Origin: Escherichia phage CMS-2020a
Sequence record: CP053388.1
Direction: 5' to 3' (one strand)
DNA length: 64,000 bases
Below the pieces are notes generated by a model. It saw only the letters and a list, made by a program, of their open reading frames with translations, was not told where the DNA came from and made no database searches. Of the stretch, positions 3,195 through 43,868 are shown piece by piece. The stretch's first letter is position 1. Each line of letters starts with the position of its first letter. Position numbers and translations under genes: made by a program.

Positions 3195-3244
3195 GTTTTC
3201 TTATCCTTTTAAACAAATTGTTTTCTTAATAAGATAATTTCGAT

Positions 3245-3278
3245 AAAAAAGGCGTCCAACTGGACGCCTGAACTTTTT
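3245..3278 (-). terminator. intrinsic terminator GGCGTCC-AACT-GGACGCC flanked by A-run and T-run
   Basis: hairpin plus T-tract (on minus strand) directly after stop of 3286..4116. Confidence 0.6.
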
Positions 3279-3285
3279 AGGGGAG

Positions 3286-4116
3286 TTATTTCACTGTAAT
3301 GAAAGGAGTGTTAGCCCCTTGAGTCATGTACTGCGGTAACTGGCCATTCCATTTATTGATGGCTTCCAGCTCCATAACGTTCGGGTTTTGACGCAGAGCT
3401 TCACCGCGCAGACGAATGGCGTCTGCTTCTGCTTGCGCACGAGCACGGATAGCATCAGCTTCACCATTAGCCTGTTCACGTAGCATATTCGCCTCAGCTT
3501 TACGTTGTTCAACTTCCTGCTGACGTTGCAGAGTACGCTGGTTAGCCGTTACTTTGGCGTTGATAGATTCAATGACGGTTTTTGGGTAATCAGGCTTTCC
3601 AACCCATGACAGGCTCAGTACCTCAATACCAACCGGAGACATCTCTTTCTGAATATCTTTCAGTGCGTTGTCCAGCAATTGCGCCTTACCACCGTCGATA
3701 AATGAGTCAGTGGTCATACGGCTGGCCAAACGGTTTAGAGAGTCGGCAATTTTCTGACGCAGATCTGATTCGGTGATATCGTCTACGCCTTTGCGATAGG
3801 TCTGGAACACCGTCGTTACCTTGTCACGATTAACCAGATACGCAACGCCAATTTTGTGACCAATAGCAGTACCGTCACTCATCTGGAATGTGAACGGTTC
3901 GTCGTAGGTCTTCATTTGTTTGAAGGTCGGGAATACGTAAAGTTCGGTGTTAAGACCTGTCCATTGGCGACCAACGCCAACCACTTCACCGATCCCTTTG
4001 TCTTCACCTAATTTGTTTACTTTGATGCCAACGTATCCAGGCTCCACGCGATCACAGCCAGTAAGACCCATTGTGCAAATAGCCGCCAGAGCAACTGCAA
4101 GTAAACCTTTCTTCAT
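3286..4116 (-). CDS. SPFH/band-7 (stomatin/prohibitin-like) domain lipoprotein
   Basis: signal peptide with lipobox LTGC; C-terminal Ala/Glu/Arg-rich coiled-coil typical of SPFH proteins; domain call from recalled family features. Confidence 0.55.
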   Translation of the reverse strand: MKKGLLAVALAAICTMGLTGCDRVEPGYVGIKVNKLGEDKGIGEVVGVGRQWTGLNTELYVFPTFKQMKTYDEPFTFQMSDGTAIGHKIGVAYLVNRDKVTTVFQTYRKGVDDITESDLRQKIADSLNRLASRMTTDSFIDGGKAQLLDNALKDIQKEMSPVGIEVLSLSWVGKPDYPKTVIESINAKVTANQRTLQRQQEVEQRKAEANMLREQANGEADAIRARAQAEADAIRLRGEALRQNPNVMELEAINKWNGQLPQYMTQGANTPFITVK

Positions 4117-33461: not shown

Positions 33462-34244
33462 TTACACATGAGCGCCGTAAATTGCCCCAGCTTTAGTCCA
33501 TGTAGGCGCGTTGCCAGTTACGGCTTTACCAGCTGCTCCGCCGTTATATTCTGTACCGTTACCTTGAGTATTACATCTTCCTCCAGCAGCACCGACATTA
33601 CCACCCGAACCGCCTGTATATGCACTAAGAGACCCCTCACCAACAGATCCTTTACCAGGAGCGGAAATAGTACCAGCAGTTGCACCGGAACTCATATGAG
33701 AGGAAGACCCACCAGCACCGAATGGGCGACCACCGCCACCACCAAATATTAGTTTACCCCTGTTACCGCCGCCACCGCCGCCGCCACCTCCAGCGATTGC
33801 ACCATTATTCGTAATACGCAAGCGTGTACCGATGCCATTATTAATTGCGTTACCACCAGCAGCACCGGCAGCGTTACTACCACCATTGCCACCGCGTCCA
33901 TAGACAGTCACACCTGCGTTGATTACAAGGCTGATATAAGAGTTGGTAAGTGAACTCGGGAAATCTAAACATGGCACGCCGCTACTGGACGACACCAGAT
34001 CCCCTGTAATGGTAACAACGACTGGCGTCGCCCCCTGGGATTTTAAATAGTTGATCAGTGTGTCTTTGTTGTAGTTATGATTCGCACCGATGCTGTAATG
34101 AATTTCCTTAGAACGACCTGCTAACTGAGACATATTCCCAGCAGCAGACAATTGCACCGCCGTTCGAGCTGCACTCATCCATCTCTGGCCTGTCACACTG
34201 ACAGCCGAAGACCCAATCCAACCGGGAACACCGACAATTGGCAC
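33462..34244 (-). CDS. glycine-rich protein downstream of side tail fibre (fibre-associated or receptor-binding accessory)
   Basis: poly-Gly runs; start reassigned to GTG 34244 with AAGGAG RBS (track ORF starts 34301). Confidence 0.45.
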   Translation of the reverse strand: MPIVGVPGWIGSSAVSVTGQRWMSAARTAVQLSAAGNMSQLAGRSKEIHYSIGANHNYNKDTLINYLKSQGATPVVVTITGDLVSSSSGVPCLDFPSSLTNSYISLVINAGVTVYGRGGNGGSNAAGAAGGNAINNGIGTRLRITNNGAIAGGGGGGGGGNRGKLIFGGGGGRPFGAGGSSSHMSSGATAGTISAPGKGSVGEGSLSAYTGGSGGNVGAAGGRCNTQGNGTEYNGGAAGKAVTGNAPTWTKAGAIYGAHV

Positions 34245-34310
34245 ATCTAATCTCCTTTTTGATGTGAATATCCTGAATTGGTGAGGGTGGCCCCTCACCA
34301 TTCACCTTGA

Positions 34311-37300
34311 TTACATTTTTGCCTTCAGTTCGCGCACTTCCTCGCGCAGCTCTTTGACAGCCTCGACCAACATGCCGATAACGCCGTTGTAGTTAAGACG
34401 CAGACGAGGCTCTCCTGACTGATCGTTATGGTCAACCGTTACCAGTTCAGGCTGAACATTCTGGACGTCCTGAGCGATGAGGCCGCCAGACTGCTCATAC
34501 CGGTCACAGACCTGAATCTCGTACAGAACACCTTCGATCCGATCCAGCTTGTCGAGCGCTCGTTCAATCTTGCGAATATTGCGTTTGCTACGACGGTCAG
34601 AGCGGATATAAACGTCATTAAAGCTGCCATTACCGCCACAAACCCAAGTACCATCATTCTGGAGGTATGCGTTCGCATCCGTGCCGTTTGCGGTACGTGA
34701 GTTGTTGATCATGTAAAAACCAAACTGACTGTTTCCCAAGCCACCCAAGAAGAATTTGCGATCCGCGTGGTCTTGTCTCAACAACGCTTGTGCAGAGCTT
34801 GTACTTACAGCGTTCCTCCCGAAGATGACGTTCTGGTTACGCATATCTATCCACGCGCCAGAGCCGCTGTTGATGGAAAAACGGTTGGCGTAAACCCACG
34901 CACTTGACGTGATGTCACCCGTTACACTCAACGGCTTAAGGCTTTGCAGCGTGCTATTAACGAACCTAAAAACATGGGCGCTATTGGCGTAAACATCCAG
35001 AATGCCATCTCCGTTCTGTTTAAAGCCGGTGTCATTGTCACCCAGAACAATGGAATTACCGCCAAGAGCACTGGATGTACCGATGCCCAGTGCACCATTC
35101 AATTGACCTCCAGATAATGATAACGCCCCAACATCAGCAGCAGTCGGTTTAATGTGCGAACTGTAAATTACATATACAGTTCCATCTGTCAGGCCTGTTG
35201 GTTTATTCGCTGTATAAGTTGGTGATGTATGAATCGTTACGCTGGCGTTACTGGTATAATCCCACTGGATATTAACACCTGTGGCGTAATTACCTATTTC
35301 TACATAAATGTCATAGGTATCACCGGATGTATTCACCCATGCAAAATTAGTAAATCCAACCGAGGTCCGTCGCCATAATGCACCAGTAATACCTTTGGGG
35401 TTCCCATTTCCTGCACGCAGAACCAGCTCAGAGATGCCTGCTTGCTGCGGGGAGCCAACGTTAAACCCTGCGCCACCAATCAGGCTTATGTAAACCACGG
35501 AACTGGCTTGTGGCATGGTTACAGTTGCCAGCTTGAACCATCCGGCACCACCACTAAAAGACATTGTTGCTGAGTTGATCGTGCCTATAGACCTTGGAGT
35601 TAGCTCAATATTTTTAGAACCGTCAAACGACACCCCATTTATAGTTCTAGCGGTTTGTAACTTGGTCGCTGTCGCTGCATTACCGGTTGTGTTCTGGTTA
35701 CCAGCAATGTTTACACCCGGCAGGTTGATATTGGCGGAGCCATCGAATGACACGCCGCCTATTGTGCGTGCTGTTTGCAGTTTTGTTGCAGTTGCAGCAT
35801 TACCGTTCAAACTACCATTGATGCCGCCAGTAACATTGAGTCCATTACCGATCGTAACAGCACCGCTGGTATTATTAATTATAATAGGTCGCAAACCGTT
35901 CCATGAACCTAATGTGTCTCCTGATGCTGTTAGCATGAAATATGTGTTCGATCCATCATTACGGATAAAGAATCCATAGTTGCCATAGGCAATGCGCAGA
36001 CCATTCGCCGATTTTGAAATAATCTCGCCAGCAGCAGTTAATCCGCCAGTTAACGCTCCTCCAGAAAGCGATAATGCTCCTACATCAGAAGCTGTTGGTT
36101 TGTTTCTAGTGTTATAAGAACGACGCCAGCCTGGCGCGTAATCACTGCCATTGTACACATAAATAAATTCCGCATTGTTAACACCACCATGACCCGATGT
36201 TGTTGTCGTTGTAACACGAATAGTGTAGTGGCTTGTTGCCTTATTACTAAACACCTCAATCACGGAACCAGATAGATCGATCCTACCGCAACCAGTGTCG
36301 TCTATATAATTATTGTTGGCGTAAGTCCATGAGCACCGTGCGATCCAATGTTTGTTTGTAAATGCCCCCTGATTATTTAGCCAAGTTATAAATTGAGCAG
36401 TCGTAAATGCCGTTCCGTTACCACTATTTAACCATCCAGCGGCAGCGGTTGGCGCGTTTATATCAGCCGGCTGAGGCATAAATCCAGTCGTGTAAACCTG
36501 CTCCCAACCACTTTCAAAACCATAGCCATCTCTTGAGGAACGGTAGAACAGACCACCATTTTTATAGTGAGCTTTAATTTGAAGCGTACGGCAACTACCT
36601 AAACCGGTATAAAAGTTGGCAAGAATATAACTGTGGCCTGTTCTATTTACATTATAAGCACCAGATTCAGCATTCCACGGCACGCCACCATCAGCATCCG
36701 CATATGACCCTGTTGCCCTTCTTGCGAAAGCGGCAACATGCGCAGCGGTTAAAGTGATATCAGTAGAACCATCAAATGGAACACCGGATATTTTTCTTAC
36801 CGTCTGAAGTTTTGTAGCAGTTGCAGCATTACCAGTGGTGTTCTGATTACCCGTAGTGTTTACACCTGGAAGGTTAATATTTGCAGAACCGTCGAAAACA
36901 ACTCCACCGATAGATCTTGCCGTCTGCAATTTCGTGGCTGTACTTGCATTACCATTCAATGAACCAGTTAATCCACCTGTAACAGACAACGGACCTGAAA
37001 CTGTTCCTCCGGTTGTTGGCAGTGCTCCAATATCTAACGGCGTCGGTTTCTGATGTGTGCTATACATCGTATAAACAACACCATCGGTAACGCTGGAAGG
37101 CTTACTCGCTGAATATGTTGGCGATGTATAAATAGAAACTGTCGCATTTGCAGTACAATCCCAATGGATATTTACACGAGTCGCATAATTGCCAATCTCA
37201 ACGTAAATATCATATGTATCGCCGGATGTGTTGATCCAGGCGAAATTCGTTAACCCGACGGCTGTACGCTTCCACAAAGCCCCGGTAATTCCTTTGGGGT

Positions 37301-39041
37301 TTCCATTGCCTGCTCGTAGAACCAGTTCTGAAATGCCTGCCTGATGTGGGGAACCGACGTTGTAACCAGCGCCACCAATCAATGCGATGTAAACGATGGA
37401 ACTCGCTTGTGGCATGGTAACCGTAGCCAGTTTGAACCACCCAGCCCCGCCAGAGAAAGACATCGTTACTGAATTTAAAGTACCAATATCTTTCGGCGTT
37501 AATGTTATATCCGCAGTCAGTGCTTTTCCGTTAACTTTTCGGTTAGATGGCACCCTGCTATTCGCATTGTCATTGGCTGCTTTAACTGCTTTTGGCGTTG
37601 CGGCCAGCGATTCACTGGTGCTATCAACAGCACTGCTAAGTTTCACAACACCTTTAGTTGTAAGGCTTGCGTCTTCCATCGCAACTGCACCGGCAATCTC
37701 TTCAGCACGATCAGCAGCAGCTTCCGCACGGGTCGCAGCGGATTCAGCAGCAGTTTTGCTCTGAGATGCTGCCGTCGCACTGCCTGCCGCCTCTGTTGCT
37801 TTCGTGGATGCCGTCGTGGCGCTGCCCTTCGCTGCTGACGCCTGTCTGGTCGCCTCATCTTTTGAAGCAGACGCAGATGATGCCGATGACGCTGCCGAAC
37901 TGGCGGACGATGCGGCTGCCGTTTTTGAGGATTCTGCACGGGTTTCCGACGCTTTCGCGTTCGTTTCGGATGTCTTCGCTGCGGAAGCAGACCTCGCTGC
38001 TGCGCTGGCCTGTTCAGTGGCTTCGCCAGCCTTCGTTGTGGCTGTTGAAGCAGACGATGCGGCACTTTCTGCCGATTTTCCGGCGGCGGTGGCACTGGCT
38101 GAGGCCTGCCCGGCACTTGTTGACGCGGCACTGGCAGACGACGCAGCCGCTGTTTTTGAGCCTGCCGCAGCTGAGGCACTCTGTCCCGCTGCCGTTTCAG
38201 AAGACCTGGCGTTCGTCTCGGACGTTTTTGCCGCCTTCGCGGAATTGCCTGCCGCTGTTGCCGAGGAGGCTGCACTACTGGCGCTCGAGGCTGCGCTCGT
38301 TTCTGATGATTTTGCCGCCTCTTTTGAAGCCGACGCATCTCTGGCTGAGGTGGCAGCTTCTGACGCTTTCGTGGTCGCGGTGGATGCAGAAGTGGCTGCA
38401 GATTTTTGTGACGCTGCAGCATTCGTTTCAGATTTTTTCGCAGCAGTTGCACTCGCACTTGCGGCACTTTGTGAGGATGCCGCAGCGGATGCACTTTGAG
38501 ACGCTTGAGAGGCTTTTTCTCCAGCGATATTGGCGCTTTCTGCTGCTGCGGCAGCACTGGCCGCCGCCTCACGAGCTTTGTCGCCAGCAGCATCAATCGC
38601 GTCAGTGTTATTTTTATACCACTCAACGTTTTCGTTGTGCTCGTTGACGATCTGCATTAGCGGCTTAACGGTCACTTCTGTACCGTCTTCACGCTCGATT
38701 GTCACCTCATCCAGAGCAGTCAACCAACTGCGCATGGACTTGGAATCAGCCGACATACGCGACATTAGTGCTGTAAAGCGCGCGCTAAACTGTGTTAAGT
38801 CGCCTTCATAGGTCGTAATGATTCGGCACGGAACTTCAGACTGAGTTTCGCCGGTATAAGGTTCTGAGAGAACAATGTTCGTATCACTGGTTACGCGCTT
38901 GATCTCATACAGCTTATTGTCGGGGCCAATGACGATCATCCCCGGCAACACACCATTAGCTGTTACGTTCCAGGCTGTCCCTGCCCCAACCAGAGTATTG
39001 CTACCCTGTGTAAATGTGATAGTACCTTCCCTGTACCACAT
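34311..39041 (-). CDS. side tail fibre protein with Ala/Ser-rich region, internally duplicated domains and C-terminal intramolecular-chaperone (peptidase S74-like) domain
   Basis: 1576 aa; C-terminal SDRRSKRNIR...ALDKLD auto-chaperone-like segment; repeated MSFSGGAGWFKLATVTMPQ and LNGNA-TATKLQTAR blocks. Confidence 0.8.
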   Translation of the reverse strand: MWYREGTITFTQGSNTLVGAGTAWNVTANGVLPGMIVIGPDNKLYEIKRVTSDTNIVLSEPYTGETQSEVPCRIITTYEGDLTQFSARFTALMSRMSADSKSMRSWLTALDEVTIEREDGTEVTVKPLMQIVNEHNENVEWYKNNTDAIDAAGDKAREAAASAAAAAESANIAGEKASQASQSASAAASSQSAASASATAAKKSETNAAASQKSAATSASTATTKASEAATSARDASASKEAAKSSETSAASSASSAASSATAAGNSAKAAKTSETNARSSETAAGQSASAAAGSKTAAASSASAASTSAGQASASATAAGKSAESAASSASTATTKAGEATEQASAAARSASAAKTSETNAKASETRAESSKTAAASSASSAASSASSASASKDEATRQASAAKGSATTASTKATEAAGSATAASQSKTAAESAATRAEAAADRAEEIAGAVAMEDASLTTKGVVKLSSAVDSTSESLAATPKAVKAANDNANSRVPSNRKVNGKALTADITLTPKDIGTLNSVTMSFSGGAGWFKLATVTMPQASSIVYIALIGGAGYNVGSPHQAGISELVLRAGNGNPKGITGALWKRTAVGLTNFAWINTSGDTYDIYVEIGNYATRVNIHWDCTANATVSIYTSPTYSASKPSSVTDGVVYTMYSTHQKPTPLDIGALPTTGGTVSGPLSVTGGLTGSLNGNASTATKLQTARSIGGVVFDGSANINLPGVNTTGNQNTTGNAATATKLQTVRKISGVPFDGSTDITLTAAHVAAFARRATGSYADADGGVPWNAESGAYNVNRTGHSYILANFYTGLGSCRTLQIKAHYKNGGLFYRSSRDGYGFESGWEQVYTTGFMPQPADINAPTAAAGWLNSGNGTAFTTAQFITWLNNQGAFTNKHWIARCSWTYANNNYIDDTGCGRIDLSGSVIEVFSNKATSHYTIRVTTTTTSGHGGVNNAEFIYVYNGSDYAPGWRRSYNTRNKPTASDVGALSLSGGALTGGLTAAGEIISKSANGLRIAYGNYGFFIRNDGSNTYFMLTASGDTLGSWNGLRPIIINNTSGAVTIGNGLNVTGGINGSLNGNAATATKLQTARTIGGVSFDGSANINLPGVNIAGNQNTTGNAATATKLQTARTINGVSFDGSKNIELTPRSIGTINSATMSFSGGAGWFKLATVTMPQASSVVYISLIGGAGFNVGSPQQAGISELVLRAGNGNPKGITGALWRRTSVGFTNFAWVNTSGDTYDIYVEIGNYATGVNIQWDYTSNASVTIHTSPTYTANKPTGLTDGTVYVIYSSHIKPTAADVGALSLSGGQLNGALGIGTSSALGGNSIVLGDNDTGFKQNGDGILDVYANSAHVFRFVNSTLQSLKPLSVTGDITSSAWVYANRFSINSGSGAWIDMRNQNVIFGRNAVSTSSAQALLRQDHADRKFFLGGLGNSQFGFYMINNSRTANGTDANAYLQNDGTWVCGGNGSFNDVYIRSDRRSKRNIRKIERALDKLDRIEGVLYEIQVCDRYEQSGGLIAQDVQNVQPELVTVDHNDQSGEPRLRLNYNGVIGMLVEAVKELREEVRELKAKM

Positions 39042-39134
39042 GTTGAATATGCTCCTTGATTTGGCGGGCTATCCTTGCCCGCCATTAAGTAAATACTTAC
39101 CTATTTTTACCGATATAAAATTTTTTTTCCACCA

Positions 39135-42100
39135 TCACAGACGGCCAATTCTTACTCGTAAGACGTTGTTATCGTCATAAACGTCAATCCGCTGACCATT
39201 TATAACCAATCGCCCATTGCCGCCGCTATTACCGTTGATCTCAAGCGTTCCATTTTTGCCGAACCGCCATCCAGATCTACCGCTAACAAAATTGGTAGAT
39301 TGCAGATCGCCTACTTTTGCATTGGTGATTGTGCCATCCTTGATATACGCTCCATTCATATAGGCGATACTGTTTTCGATAACAAATGGCGTTGTGATCT
39401 TCCCGTTAACAGAGTTGACCAAACCAAACCTGTCAGCCTGCACCAAAAACTGAGAAAGGCCAGTGGTGTCGATACCAAGCGCAATACCAGCAACATACTT
39501 CTGCCCTCCGCTCGTTGAAGTTTCCATTTTCAACGTCCACGCGGTTGACACTTTTTTGTTGGTATCAGCAATAGCTGTTGCCTGCTGTTGAATTGTCGCG
39601 GTATTTCCATCCACCTCTGCTTTCAGAGTATCGATTCGCCCACTCAGAGCATTATCTGCCTGCGTTCTCGCTGTCGTTTCAGTTGTTACCGCCGCGGAAA
39701 TGTTGGCTGCCGTTTGAGACTCTAAGTTTGTGATTTGAGTCGCCAATGCGGCATCTTGCTCTGTACGCGTTTTCGTTTCGGTTGCTACAGCCGCTTTAAT
39801 ATCCTCTTTGTATTGAGAGGTCAGCTTGGTGATCTGAGACGACAACGCCGAGTCAGCATCAGTTCGAGCCTGCGTTTCAACTGCAACGGCCGCACTAATA
39901 TCTTTCGCTGTCTGTGCTTTTAAACTTGAAACCTCTTTTGTTAAAGCGGTATCACCATCTGCACGAGCCGTTGTTTCTCTGGCAAGAGACGCCTCGAGAT
40001 CATTAGCTTTTGCTGTAAGAGACGTAATCTGGGTAGACAATGCACTATCGGCATCAGTCCTTGCTTTTGTCTCTACAGCAACCGCTGCGGCAATATCAGT
40101 TCCGGTTTGTGCTCGCAGGCTGTTAATTTCTCGTGAGAGCGCCTGGTCAGCACTTGCCCTGGCCTCCTGCTCCTGAGTGATGGCAGCGGATATATCACCG
40201 TCAACCTTTGACTGAAGCTGGTTTATTTGTTTGGCTAACGCAGAGTCCCCGCTTGCTCGAGCCTCCTGCTCACTACGTATTGCAGCAGAAATATCATCAT
40301 CAACCTTTGCCTGAAGTTGGGTGATCTGGCTTGCCAGAGCCGAATCTTCCGTTGCTCGGGCTTCTTGCTCTTCCTTAATAGCTGCGACGATATCGTTGCT
40401 TACTTTCGACTCAAGCTGAGTGATCTGTGTCGTCAGAGCTTCATCGGCAGATGTACGAGCCTCCTGCTCTGTACTAATCGCCGCGCTGATATCTCCTTCA
40501 AACTTAGATTGCAGCTGAGTGACACGCTTTGCCAACGCTTCATCGCCATCGGCACGAGCGGTGGACTCTTCCAGAATACTGGCCTTAATGTCTTCGCCAA
40601 TTTCTACGCGAATTTCCTCAACCTTCGTGGCTATTGCAGACATATCATCAGCAAAGGTTTTCTGTGTTGTTGCGATCTTCGCGTTATTGACCATCTGCTT
40701 GTGCTGGTCTTCATCTTGACGAAGAGCCAGGTCAATATTTGTTTTGGCTAACGCCTCAATGTTCGTAGTCAGTTCTGCACTGGCACGATCGACCTCTGCA
40801 ACCGTCTTTTTCATTTCTTCAACGGCAGCGGAGCTTTCCTCTACCGTTGACTGCAACACTTCCAGTTGTTTAGCGTTTGCAGCATCGCCTTCAACACGAG
40901 CCTCGCTTTCCTTAGCAATAAGAGCCGCCGCTTCATCTCTTGCAGCCTTTATTGCCTCGACTGTATTAGCGAGAGCTTTATCGTGTTCAGATACGGTGTT
41001 TTCGATTTCAACAATTGCAGCATCAGTAGCATCAATTTTTTCAAACGCTTCATTGACCTTGTCAATCGTTGCCGAAACCTCACCTTTAAGCTCGGTTTGT
41101 GCGTTCTCCAAAGCATCGCTACGCTCGTTGAATTTTATTTCAAAATCCGCGAGGTTATCGCTGAACTGCTTATCTAATTCAGCTATATCTTCCTTAACGT
41201 CGTTTACCGCCCCCTCCAAAGATTCGACGCTCTGGTTGATATGCTCATTTAACTCGTCAACTGCTTCTTGAGAGGCTTTGCTGTTGATGTCCTCAAGCAG
41301 AGCCTGACCAAGCTCGGAAGATGTAATTTTGCCAGTCAGGAACGACAGTACATCGCGAGTTGTCGCCTCTGTACCCAAGTTTGAGTTCGGAGGACTTAAC
41401 ATACCTCGCTTGTTCGATGCTCGAACCCAGTAATACCACGTTTCGCTATCCCCAAGACCAGCATGTGTAAAGGTGGTGCTTGCAGACTCTGCGATCAGTT
41501 TCGCCGTATCCAGATTGTTGGTCTGGGATGCGTAAACATTAATGTGATCAAGGTCTACCGAATCTGGATTAACCCAATTCAGTATCACATTACGATAGTC
41601 TCCAACGGCCGTTAATGACGTTGGGGAATCCGGCGGTGTCATTGTGCCCAACACCTGATAAACGGTACTGATAATCTCTGTTTTTTTACCGTTGAATGAA
41701 ACCGCATACAGCTGGAAGTCGTAGCGTCCATTCTCCGCGACATTAACGATTTCGTATTGCTCTTCGGTTACACGCGCCGATTGCCAGTTCGATACATTGT
41801 TTTCATCAGAACGTCGCCAACTGATCCAATACTCTGGAGATTTCCCTTCCCATGTTGCAGTCAGTTTTACTGACAGGTTGCCAGGGCTTGAGAGATAAGT
41901 CCCTTCGGTGATTTGCAAATTAGACGGCTTGGAGTAAGTCGGGTCCAATACCGTCGTATTCTGCGGGATAAGCGTTGCACCATTGTCGATTGCCTCATAT
42001 TTAGACGGATTGTTCTCAACAGCGGTGATGTCAAAGCTACCCGGCGTTTCCCCCTGCGCGATGTTAACGATGCGAACGCGCATAGGTTCGAGATCTGGTT

Positions 42101-43868
42101 CTGTAATTGTCCAGACACCGTTCAAAACAGGCGTTTCCGCTGACGACAGGGCTTTTGAAAACGTAACCTTTGTTATGTTTTCGCCAGTTTCAAGAACATC
42201 GCGTTCAACGATTTTGCCTTCCTGATTCAGTATTCGAATAAAGCAGCCGCCTTTGGCTAACGACACCGGCGCATCGAGTGTGACGCTGTTTTTGGTAAAC
42301 GCCACAATTCGACCTGAGTTACGTTTGCCTGCGCGATATTTGTTCTGAATCAGAACGGTTTCACCAGGCATCAGAAATGACGCGTCTAAGCCGGCAGTAA
42401 ATGTAATTACATCCGACTCCATTCTGGCGGTATATAAAAGCCACAAACCAACTCGGTGAGCCTGCCCTCGGCTTGTACAGCCAAATGCTACGACTTCTGT
42501 CTTACGCTCACCATAACGGCGCATTGCGTCCTGATCTTCAACGTACTCGATGTTTTGCTTATAACCGTCCTCCTTGTTGTTGTAGGTTACGAGCGCAACG
42601 GATGGGCGATCTTTACGCGCAGAACCTTTATAGGTAAACAATCCATCTTTGACGTTAGAGTTGGTAAACATCATTACCGGATCTGATGGGCTATCCTGCA
42701 TGATGTTAACCATGCCACCAGCCCAAAACACCATACCGCGGAATGCACCGGCAATATCCTGAATTAATCGGTATGCGTCCTGTCGACTGGTGATCTGCGT
42801 ATTGATTGCAAAGCGTTTCTCTTTACCACCAAAGCCATCATCAACCTCTTCGTCACAATATCGACCGATCTGGTATAGCTGGCCGAGGTCAATCATAGAT
42901 TCCGACACATACTGACCAAGGCCATATCGAGCATTGGTAAGCAAATCAAAGAGAATCCACGCGGGGTTTGAAGAAGACAACAGCTTAAAAGTGCCATCCC
43001 ATACACCATCATAAGTGTTGCTGGCCTCGTTGTAGTTTGACGGCACGCGAATTTTTAATCCACGTACCAAATACGAACGAGATGGCATGGTGCTACCAAA
43101 CTGCTCAGAATTAACCTTCAGACCCACCAGCACAGAGTTTGGGTAGTTCATCGGTGTATCTACAATCTCACCTATTGAGTCCACCCATGTATCGTTATAG
43201 AGATACTGGCTGCTGTTATCATCGGTAATACGGACTACACGAACCTTGTACGCGCGTCCAGGCTTAGGCAGCTTCAGCTCATAGCTACGGTAATAAACAC
43301 CTGTCTTCTTTGCTGTTAGCTTAATGCCAACGCTTTTTTCACCTTCTGCGACCACATCTACAAATGTTGAGTCGCCATTTGCTATCTGGAACTTGTACTC
43401 AACGGTTGTACCGTTCGTGTCACCAGTTTTTTTATCTATGCTTCGCAAAGAAGGAAACTTCATGATGACACGAACCCGATCAGCTTCATCGTTATCGATT
43501 GAAACCGTTACATAATGTGTTTTTTTTAACTGGATATTGACGGATTTAGGCGTTTCAACGAAATCAAAGCCAGACATTGGAGTCTGGTCTTGCGAACCGT
43601 CGCGAAAATCCCATGTGATTCCGCTGAAGTTGGAGGAACCGTCTTCATTTACAATCGGCAGATCGTCGACAAAAATAGATCTTGCGCCATTTACCAAGCC
43701 GCCAATTACACCTTCCCCAAGAAGATCGAGGATAGCGGCCATTGCACGAGAATTTACGGTATCGTCGGCTTCAACCGGTGTACGGCTAGAGCTTTTGCTG
43801 CTTTTTTTACCACCCGCACCTGCAATAAACAGCGGTAACTTTTTCTTCTTGAACTGTTCCATGTTCAA
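39135..43868 (-). CDS. J: central tail fibre / host specificity protein, lambda J-like
   Basis: blocks matching recalled lambda J such as VGLKVNSEQFGS, RVPSNYN, FGCTSRGQAHRVGLWL; 1577 aa with added coiled-coil repeat region. Confidence 0.85.
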   Translation of the reverse strand: MNMEQFKKKKLPLFIAGAGGKKSSKSSSRTPVEADDTVNSRAMAAILDLLGEGVIGGLVNGARSIFVDDLPIVNEDGSSNFSGITWDFRDGSQDQTPMSGFDFVETPKSVNIQLKKTHYVTVSIDNDEADRVRVIMKFPSLRSIDKKTGDTNGTTVEYKFQIANGDSTFVDVVAEGEKSVGIKLTAKKTGVYYRSYELKLPKPGRAYKVRVVRITDDNSSQYLYNDTWVDSIGEIVDTPMNYPNSVLVGLKVNSEQFGSTMPSRSYLVRGLKIRVPSNYNEASNTYDGVWDGTFKLLSSSNPAWILFDLLTNARYGLGQYVSESMIDLGQLYQIGRYCDEEVDDGFGGKEKRFAINTQITSRQDAYRLIQDIAGAFRGMVFWAGGMVNIMQDSPSDPVMMFTNSNVKDGLFTYKGSARKDRPSVALVTYNNKEDGYKQNIEYVEDQDAMRRYGERKTEVVAFGCTSRGQAHRVGLWLLYTARMESDVITFTAGLDASFLMPGETVLIQNKYRAGKRNSGRIVAFTKNSVTLDAPVSLAKGGCFIRILNQEGKIVERDVLETGENITKVTFSKALSSAETPVLNGVWTITEPDLEPMRVRIVNIAQGETPGSFDITAVENNPSKYEAIDNGATLIPQNTTVLDPTYSKPSNLQITEGTYLSSPGNLSVKLTATWEGKSPEYWISWRRSDENNVSNWQSARVTEEQYEIVNVAENGRYDFQLYAVSFNGKKTEIISTVYQVLGTMTPPDSPTSLTAVGDYRNVILNWVNPDSVDLDHINVYASQTNNLDTAKLIAESASTTFTHAGLGDSETWYYWVRASNKRGMLSPPNSNLGTEATTRDVLSFLTGKITSSELGQALLEDINSKASQEAVDELNEHINQSVESLEGAVNDVKEDIAELDKQFSDNLADFEIKFNERSDALENAQTELKGEVSATIDKVNEAFEKIDATDAAIVEIENTVSEHDKALANTVEAIKAARDEAAALIAKESEARVEGDAANAKQLEVLQSTVEESSAAVEEMKKTVAEVDRASAELTTNIEALAKTNIDLALRQDEDQHKQMVNNAKIATTQKTFADDMSAIATKVEEIRVEIGEDIKASILEESTARADGDEALAKRVTQLQSKFEGDISAAISTEQEARTSADEALTTQITQLESKVSNDIVAAIKEEQEARATEDSALASQITQLQAKVDDDISAAIRSEQEARASGDSALAKQINQLQSKVDGDISAAITQEQEARASADQALSREINSLRAQTGTDIAAAVAVETKARTDADSALSTQITSLTAKANDLEASLARETTARADGDTALTKEVSSLKAQTAKDISAAVAVETQARTDADSALSSQITKLTSQYKEDIKAAVATETKTRTEQDAALATQITNLESQTAANISAAVTTETTARTQADNALSGRIDTLKAEVDGNTATIQQQATAIADTNKKVSTAWTLKMETSTSGGQKYVAGIALGIDTTGLSQFLVQADRFGLVNSVNGKITTPFVIENSIAYMNGAYIKDGTITNAKVGDLQSTNFVSGRSGWRFGKNGTLEINGNSGGNGRLVINGQRIDVYDDNNVLRVRIGRL

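Follow-up and report, generated by a model that had tools for sequence, protein, structure and literature searches.

The 1576-residue protein encoded at 34311..39041 on the minus strand of the window (the whole 64,000-nucleotide stretch of Escherichia phage CMS-2020a, record CP053388.1, that was analysed) is very probably the long fibre of an SSU5-like phage-plasmid from E. coli and Shigella, and it seems likely that the conspicuous repeats within it represent standard tail-fibre building blocks, present in two old copies that were acquired separately. Since the repeats are such building blocks, and the fibre is tipped by a known type of self-cleaving chaperone and a T2-type adhesin, we regard it as an unremarkable mosaic fibre of a type already known.

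Results

Organization of the fibre gene

The first-pass annotation had taken this ORF for a tail fibre, and our analysis supports that reading; its N-terminus (MWYREG...) is common to SSU5 and Cyrano fibres. All features described here lie on the minus strand. The N-terminal SSU5-type domain (aa 1-140; 38622..39041), recognized by homology and presumed to attach the fibre to the tail, shows 98-100% identity across all E. coli SSU5-like relatives and 86% to its SSU5 counterpart; the lambdoid phage phi458 lacks it. There follows in the translation an Ala/Ser-rich low-complexity shaft (aa 141-480; 37602..38621), inside which a repeat search found two degenerate families of 30-45 nt (D3 and D4) and to which the phi458 fibre is 96% identical in nucleotide sequence from aa 175 on. 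A linker (aa 481-526; 37464..37601), containing the motif ATPKAVKAANDNAN and a degenerate half-B repeat and aligning to Mu S residues 135-156, leads into module A (aa 527-667; 37041..37463), a jelly-roll beta-sandwich knob.

Beyond A lie two 40-aa shaft repeats, B1-B2 (aa 693-772; 36726..36965), placed by B-HMM matches, by repeat family D2 and by homology breakpoints at aa 741-767. The center of the protein is occupied by module Y (aa 773-868; 36438..36725), which is Mu S'-like (PDB 8ju3 residues 324-421 correspond to fibre aa 771-868) and has a Pfam gp37_C match of 24.5 bits; by module X (aa 869-955; 36177..36437), which is Mu S-like (8ju3 residues 201-326 correspond to fibre aa 860-986); and by module G (aa 956-1062; 35856..36176), a domain of the T4 Gp34 C-terminal trimerisation type (PF21446, E=5.7e-31) with PDB matches to 4uxe/5nxf and to Mu S 5yvq residues 234-338. 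A linker and B1'-B2' (aa 1063-1155; 35577..35855), placed by self-match, B-HMM and breakpoints at aa 1091, 1106, 1113, and 1148, precede module A' (aa 1160-1300; 35142..35564), a second jelly-roll knob by its homology to A. The distal shaft and tip (aa 1301-1480; 34602..35141), which ends in ...NDVYIR, has homology to SSU5 (85-99% aa identity over fibre aa 1311-1480), Mu S 5yvq residues 341-445, and T-even gp37, and the protein closes with an intramolecular chaperone (aa 1481-1576; 34314..34601).

Repeats within the fibre

Two blocks had been described as each occurring twice in the fibre, in the order A-B and then B'-A'. Both the repetition and the swapped order are confirmed by self-BLASTP, which was run on the split protein, piece against piece: aa 495-699 match aa 1126-1330 with 68% identity over 207 aa (E=1e-100), and aa 680-789 match aa 1063-1168 with 66% identity over 110 aa (E=5e-38). 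The similarity noted earlier at the DNA level is also significant within the gene, where self-BLASTN pairs nt 1554-2000 with 3453-3899 (73.7% identity, E=1e-75) and nt 2058-2278 with 3207-3427 (70%, E=4e-24). The repeat search agrees, returning one family of 300 nt at 69% (D1) and another of four 79-nt copies spaced 120/1029/120 (D2), and the repeats are direct and in frame. The high identity ascribed to the blocks amounts, in the core of A against A', to 82% at the amino acid and 74% at the nucleotide level.

The B block needs a different description. It is indeed repeated, but what had been taken for a 65-aa unit present twice consists of two tandem 40-aa repeats, so that the B-HMM finds four copies (aa 693-732, 733-772, 1076-1115, and 1116-1155) with the consensus GNAxTATKLQTxRxIxGVxFDGSxxIxL; the beginning of B' consequently moves from 35783 to about 35855-35816 of the window. 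Because a degenerate half-B also precedes the first A (RKVNGKALTADITLTPKDIG against RTINGVSFDGSKNIELTPRSIG), the layout is closer to (b)-A-BB ... BB-A'.

The A module is a jelly-roll beta-sandwich knob of ~140 aa. It resembles the C-terminal domain of tailspike-like trimers, namely Pantoea WceF (6TGF) and the Acinetobacter phage tailspikes 6C72, 8OQ0, and 5W5P, and would correspond to WceF residues 531-667, although sequence identity to these proteins is only about 12%; moreover, the fibre knobs are internal to the shaft and present twice, whereas the tailspike domains are placed after a beta-helix depolymerase. PDB sequence searches with an A profile and with B retrieved no solved homologue of either, yielding only Mu S linker matches and a weak match to the phage L Dec tail (E=0.06). 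Because no Pfam model was found for A or B, we infer the roles of both from fold and context only. An identification of B with PF03406 was rejected, since hmmscan of the B segments found nothing; the precomputed PF03406 matches of homologues are probably due to another motif, ATPKAVK. Homologue searches with A alone gave short fragments only, and these were used for alignment, not for architecture.

Divergence and origin of A and A'

The two A copies are old. Synonymous sites between them are saturated (pS 0.74-0.82, with dN 0.12-0.16), 93 of the 132 mismatches between the copies (70%) lie at third codon positions, and the longest identical DNA run is 17 nt; the DNA similarity of the copies is about what 82% protein identity would yield by itself. 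Strong purifying selection acts on both (dN/dS about 0.04), and the domain is conserved in fibres from E. coli to Pseudomonas.

Nor are the copies each other's closest relatives. In a tree of 33 A-type domains, A and A' fall in different clades, each common to other phage types. A has nearer relatives than A' in lambdoid side fibres, with 96% nucleotide identity to phi458, and A' has a nearer relative than A in the fibre of the Mu-like Yersinia phage vB_YpM_39 (91.7% nucleotide and 92% amino acid identity). A-type domains are single in lambdoid fibres and A'-type domains single in Mu-like fibres, where their neighbors differ. A and A', 82% identical to each other, share ~53% identity with Salmonella versions, 39% with Pseudomonas, and 33-36% with SSU5.

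Module exchange among relatives

Eleven relatives contain the same modules in other numbers and orders, with B copy number ranging from 2 to 5, and 120 homologue clusters comprise 16 architectures. Segments of the gene are 85-97% identical in nucleotide sequence to fibres of unrelated phage types and have abrupt edges, located at repeats or at short conserved motifs. Of 18 homology breakpoints, ten lie in the B arrays, which account for 10% of the length of the protein (binomial 2e-6; because the relatives share ancestry the breakpoints are not independent, and HSP ends mark crossover sites only approximately). Some 660 plasmid fibres were retrieved, and in many plasmids homology ends at gene nt 3272 or 3443, that is, in B1' and B2'. 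Linkers of the form KPTxxD[IV]GA at aa 665, 981, and 1298 mark module ends. The B repeat itself is widespread, occurring in 558 records of phages as different as T-even phages and cyanophages. Since so many breakpoints sit inside the B arrays, we take B to be a marker of cassette-exchange junctions between genomes.

It had been proposed that the repeats drive recombinational variation in host range. This is partly supported. Between genomes, breakpoints are strongly concentrated in the B arrays and the number of B copies varies; within the gene we saw no sign that the two copies have recombined, and a non-exhaustive search revealed no relative with A and A' reduced to a single module. The architecture is shared, unchanged, by 63 protein clusters in public databases (82-100% identity).

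The fibre tip

The view that the last ~95 aa form an S74-type chaperone has gained support from three sides. The C-terminal domain matches PF13884 at aa 1481-1535 with 41.7 bits against a cut-off of 22 (E=1.4e-10), at the extreme C-terminus of the 1576-aa fibre and above the gathering score; the sequence R1480-S1481-D-R-R-S-K1486 places a Lys five residues downstream of the Ser (S-D-x-x-x-K); and T-even gp37 and S16 gp37 (6f45) match fibre aa 1454-1575, with 6f45 matching the chaperone region at E=1e-17. Aligned cleavage motifs read DLNVS^SDRRIKK in S16 and DVYIR^SDGRLKI in the fPS phages, DVYIR being the gp38-docking strand (PMC7917993). The tip of the present fibre likewise ends in a docking strand just before the chaperone (...NDVYIR^SD). 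The C-terminus is thus an intramolecular chaperone of the Peptidase_S74 type; its cleavage motif, DVYIR^SDRRSK, is that of T-even phages, and from this motif self-cleavage at R1480^S1481 is predicted.

Directly downstream, and overlooked in the first-pass annotation, is a gene for a Gp38-type adhesin of 260 aa (33462..34244, minus strand). It starts with GTG at 34244, 67 nt past the fibre stop codon, with AAGGAG 6 nt 5' of the start, and its RefSeq homologues are 783 nt long. The product matches PF05268 (237.6 bits, E=1.9e-70) and the N-terminal attachment domain PF21721 (55.4 bits), and is 84-86% identical in amino acid sequence to Gp38 of the T-even phages PaulHMueller, JSE, and RB49. This Gp38 adhesin is probably the actual receptor-binding tip.

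Discussion

The repeats first suggested an internal duplication, in other words a recent segmental duplication within the gene, later reordered and still recombinogenic, that could generate copy-number and host-range variants. The repeats are highly significant and directly oriented, which speaks for it, but saturated synonymous sites, a longest identical run of 17 nt, the separate clades of A and A', each with much closer relatives in other phages, and an architecture that is stable across the 63 clusters make such an event most improbable, and the claim is not supported. An ancient duplication is harder to dismiss: a B-A unit might have been duplicated in one ancestral fibre, the paralogues diverging under purifying selection before being dispersed by cassette exchange. 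A B-like segment precedes both A copies, A and A' resemble each other more than either resembles the Salmonella, Pseudomonas, or SSU5 versions, and duplication in one fibre whose halves later spread would be expected to give the same tree. However, A-type and A'-type domains each occur singly, among different neighbors, in lambdoid and Mu-like fibres, and joining them by recombination needs fewer events; we therefore consider an ancient duplication unlikely.

Tail-fibre genes are classical targets of diversity-generating retroelements (DGRs) and of invertible segments, and relatives of A' adjoin a hin invertase in Yersinia phage vB_YpM_39, so that programmed diversification, through a DGR template/variable repeat pair or an invertible shufflon segment, deserves mention. 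We give it almost no credence. A DGR target was rejected because the differences are not adenine-specific: mismatches are distributed over all four bases (copy 1: A 33, C 28, G 31, T 40) and lie mostly at third positions. An invertible fibre segment of the Mu G/P1 C type was rejected as well, the repeats being direct and in frame and no inverted repeats of at least 30 nt occurring in 34000-39500. Mosaic, repeat-rich genes are also prone to misassembly, and two fibre alleles could in principle have been merged into one chimeric gene. This artefact was rejected, and its probability is negligible, since the reading frame is intact, an independent assembly encodes a 100% identical 1576-aa protein (P0075 at NCBI), and the same full-length architecture recurs in two RefSeq "complete genome"-level E. 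coli assemblies (96.6% nucleotide identity) and in dozens of independent ones.

The best explanation, and one we hold with good confidence, is a beads-on-trimeric-string fibre built from a shared pool of self-folding modules. A and A' would be two anciently diverged versions of the ~140-aa knob, and B a generic 40-aa shaft repeat in four copies, the repeats having reached the gene in different cassettes: a proximal A-BB cassette common to lambdoid side tail fibres, a central Y-X-G cassette common to Mu S/S' and T4 gp34, and a distal cassette whose A' and adjoining shaft match fibres of Mu-like Yersinia phages and whose tip and chaperone match T-even gp37. Exchange between genomes would take place preferentially in the conserved B repeats and at the KPTxxDVGA linkers, and the module order would look swapped because of exchange at these sites. 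In the assembled fibre, the N-terminal domain would anchor the trimer to the tail tip; the C-terminal S74 chaperone would nucleate trimer folding and then cut itself off at R1480^S1481; and the DVYIR strands exposed in this way may dock one Gp38 adhesin, which would bind the host receptor. A and A' would serve as structural, or possibly accessory binding, knobs. A bolder proposal, which we consider doubtful, is that A and A' are lectin-like accessory binding sites, giving the fibre three spaced receptor contacts (A, A', and the Gp38 tip); the layout A-BB/Gp34-type/BB-A' might then do in a single chain what the kneed long tail fibre does in T4.

The mosaic tail-fibre genes lambda Stf, P2 H, Mu S/S', P1 S, and T4 gp34/gp37 reportedly evolve by motif rearrangement and by cassette exchange at conserved motifs. 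In its homology to Mu S/S' and T4 gp34, its repeated short motifs, and its breakpoints at conserved repeats the present fibre belongs with them; it differs in belonging to an SSU5-like phage-plasmid with its own N-terminal anchor domain, in its unusual length (1576 aa), and in having two jelly-roll knobs per chain. Endosialidase and T5 pb1 are said to carry Peptidase_S74 intramolecular chaperones, and the ~96-aa C-terminal PF13884 domain with its Ser-x4-Lys pair at the start resembles these; at the sequence level, with cleavage predicted, we detected no differences from them. The T2/S16-type tip pairs a gp37 bearing a C-terminal intramolecular chaperone with a Gp38 adhesin (Dunne et al. 2018; PDB 6F45; summarised in PMC7917993). 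The likeness here extends to S74, a DVYIR^SD motif identical to that of the T-even fPS phages, and a gp38 gene directly downstream whose product has an N-terminal attachment domain and polyglycine motifs. In contrast, the gene for the present fibre neighbors a lambda-J-like tail tip gene and does not belong to a T-even myovirus, and the fibre has no separate gp34-36 set, its Gp34-type domain lying inside the same chain.

Public databases already contain this exact protein, together with more than 60 clusters of near-identical ones, and we found no paper dissecting this fibre in the literature on SSU5 tail fibres. It is a clean, well-sampled example that leaves the understanding of tail-fibre evolution unchanged. 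Its usefulness may lie elsewhere: because hundreds of E. coli and Shigella phage-plasmids build their fibres from the same module set, these fibres are a natural data set for swap-tolerant junctions, and those junctions, the B repeats and KPTxxDVGA linkers, could be of use in host-range engineering. The Gp38 adhesin of this temperate phage-plasmid is ~85% identical to that of lytic T-even phages.

Internal Repeats and Module Anatomy

The minus-strand ORF at 34311..39041 encodes a 1576-aa tail fibre whose repeats are evident from self-comparison. With the protein split and compared against itself, aa 495–699 match aa 1126–1330 (68% identity over 207 aa, E = 1e-100) and aa 680–789 match aa 1063–1168 (66% over 110 aa, E = 5e-38); the gene compared with itself yields the same two pairs as DNA (73.7%, E = 1e-75, and 70%, E = 4e-24), and independent repeat finding also recovers both. 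The first-pass annotation had described a block A followed by B, then B′ followed by A′, and this order holds at both the protein and DNA levels. B is repeated as claimed, but its composition differs: each copy consists of two 40-aa repeats in tandem. The fibre therefore contains four B units, and B′ begins at approximately 35855–35816 rather than at 35783. A degenerate half-B precedes the first A.

Modules were assigned from Pfam, PDB sequence matches, and comparison with relatives' fibres and T-even gp37. An N-terminal domain found specifically in SSU5-like elements (aa 1–140) is followed by an Ala/Ser-rich shaft (aa 141–480), a linker bearing an ATPKAVK motif (aa 481–526), A (aa 527–667), B1-B2 (aa 693–772), a Mu S′-matching module, Y (aa 773–868; 8ju3 residues 324–421), a Mu S-matching module, X (aa 869–955; 8ju3 residues 201–326), the trimerisation domain G (aa 956–1062; Pfam Gp34_trimer, E = 6e-31; also Mu S 5yvq residues 234–338), B1′-B2′ (aa 1076–1155), A′ (aa 1160–1300), a distal shaft and tip with matches in SSU5, Mu S (5yvq residues 341–445), and T-even gp37 (aa 1301–1480), and an S74 chaperone (aa 1481–1576). 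Three module ends (aa 665, 981, and 1298) have the linker KPTxxD[IV]GA in common. The Y-X order (36177–36725, minus strand; aa 771–986) is the reverse of that in the Mu S/S′ chimera (8ju3); since Y and X are also permuted, change of order is a general property of these modules, not one peculiar to A and B.

In three other frames the Ala/Ser-rich part reads as long spurious ORFs (37600–38650, both strands; 327, 326, and 231 aa). Several RefSeq relatives have the fibre annotated only from an internal Met near aa 455, giving 1122–1128-aa products, and one relative's locus (L007, 4543–5226) carries an opposite-strand "hypothetical protein" within this region. These internal-Met starts and extra ORFs are probably annotation artefacts.

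Age and Origin of the Repeats

A recent duplication is ruled out as the source of the repeats. Over the 141-codon core, A and A′ are 82% identical in amino acids and 74% in nucleotides, with pS saturated at 0.74 and dN at 0.12; the BB pair, copy against copy, gives 0.82 and 0.16. Mismatches involve all four bases, 70% of them at third codon positions, and the longest exact run common to both halves is 17 nt, within B. Each knob has closer relatives elsewhere: the side fibre of the lambdoid phage phi458 is 96% identical in nucleotides to A, and that of vB_YpM_39, a Mu-like Yersinia phage, is 91.7% identical to A′. When 33 A-type domains were compared by neighbour joining, A and A′ fell into different clades, each of which also contains sequences of other phage types. 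Taken together, divergence, outside relatives, and tree argue that the copies are old lineages, their likeness maintained by protein constraint. Because A-type and A′-type domains are each found alone in other fibre families, a history in which recombination joined them would be more economical than birth in one ancestral gene.

The vB_YpM_39 fibre, which carries the nearest A′ relative, lies in a Mu-like layout (L003, 3534–8573) where alternative genes face opposite ways and a hin DNA invertase is present; this knob domain is thus used elsewhere in an invertible host-range switch.

Module Order and Breakpoints among Relatives

The 11 relatives' fibres compared here contain the same module set in differing numbers and orders. 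Three B units follow A in the Cyrano fibre, with more single units further along the chain, and the pAMPD1 fibre has B-A′ without the first A; overall, fibres carry two to five B copies in arrays of one to four. Among 120 homologue clusters we counted 16 architectures, the commonest (63 clusters) being the window's own, A-B-Y-X-G-B-A′-c-t-I; some others have X-G duplicated or B′ missing. In 20 of the 120, tandem X-G-X-G replaces B′-A′, so other kinds of internal module duplication occur in this family.

High-identity DNA homology with relatives stops repeatedly in B2 (aa 741, 749, 758, 764, 764, and 767) and in B1′/B2′ (aa 1091, 1106, 1113, and 1148). The B arrays, 10% of protein length, thus hold 10 of 18 breakpoints; the binomial value of 2e-6 is an upper bound on significance, since the events are not independent. 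B turns up in 558 phage records at 60–80% identity, among them T-even gp37, Pseudomonas and Acinetobacter myoviruses, and cyanophages. It appears to be a generic shaft unit whose conservation makes it a natural site for crossover between genomes.

Three database homologues (P0080, P0176, and P0188; 95–99% identity where aligned, over 43–100% of the query) carry a near-identical distal architecture on a lambda-type N-terminus (Stf; PF08400, prophage tail fibre N-terminal) in place of the SSU5-type one. The distal part thus passes as a whole between phage-plasmids and lambdoid prophages.

A Predicted Knob

Neither A nor B has an entry in Pfam or by PDB sequence search. In fold comparison, CBM and galectin jelly rolls match A weakly, and Foldseek agrees on the fold. 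In WceF, each chain forms its own jelly roll of 137 residues after a short triple beta-helix (PMC7949094); we infer that this is the part of WceF matched by A, which would accordingly be a knob present once per chain, three in all around the axis of the fibre. A less likely reading, from fold and conservation, is that A and A′ are accessory binding knobs.

That role is the sole reading with some novelty; all features of the fibre belong to known kinds. Like other mosaic fibre genes, this one fits cassette exchange at conserved motifs; its C-terminus is of the S74 intramolecular chaperone kind, and its tip with adhesin of the T2/S16 gp37-Gp38 kind. The exact protein is already public (P0075), and E. 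coli and Shigella sonnei contribute more than 60 clusters at 97–100% identity; in the literature searched on SSU5 tail fibres, no paper dissecting this one was found.

Chaperone, Adhesin, and Neighbourhood

PF13884 matches aa 1481–1535, the S16 gp37 fragment 6f45 matches aa 1454–1575 (E = 1e-17), and many T-even gp37 C-termini match as well. The fibre's NDVYIR-SDRRSK repeats the motif that reads DVYIR^SDGRLK in T-even phages and DLNVS^SDRRIKK in S16, where cleavage frees the final 113 residues and thereby exposes the Gp38 docking surface (PMC7917993). Here the S74 chaperone would drive trimer folding and then cleave itself at R1480^S1481, after which a single Gp38 would dock on the tip and bind the receptor.

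The gene downstream of the fibre encodes such a Gp38 adhesin (PF05268, 238 bits; PF21721; polyglycine tracts), 84–86% identical to gp38 of PaulHMueller, JSE, and RB49. The mechanical ORF (33462–34301, minus strand) begins with the ATG at 34301, but the true start is likely the in-frame GTG at 34244, which AAGGAG precedes by 6 nt; the resulting 260-aa product has the length of RefSeq homologues (783 nt). A 12-nt tandem repeat (CCGCCGCCACCG, 33766–33788), which could be prone to slippage, encodes a polyglycine run.

Beyond this gene, synteny with the phages Cyrano (Escherichia) and SSU5 (Salmonella) places holin, endolysin, and spanin genes. The nearest DNA matches are SSU5-type phage-plasmids of E. 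coli, 105–120 kb long, two of which contain the full-length fibre at 96.6% nucleotide identity. The other flank is occupied by a lambda-J-like tip protein (39135..43868, minus strand; Pfam Phage_Tail_Tip, Phage-tail_3, and FNIII-A_GpJ) of 1577 aa, whose C-proximal third has a long run of 33-aa repeats (consensus DISAAI..EQEAR..AD.AL..QI.QL..KV) that TRF picks up only in part (period 99 nt, 40162–40370). This coiled-coil-like insert is unusually long for a GpJ homologue.
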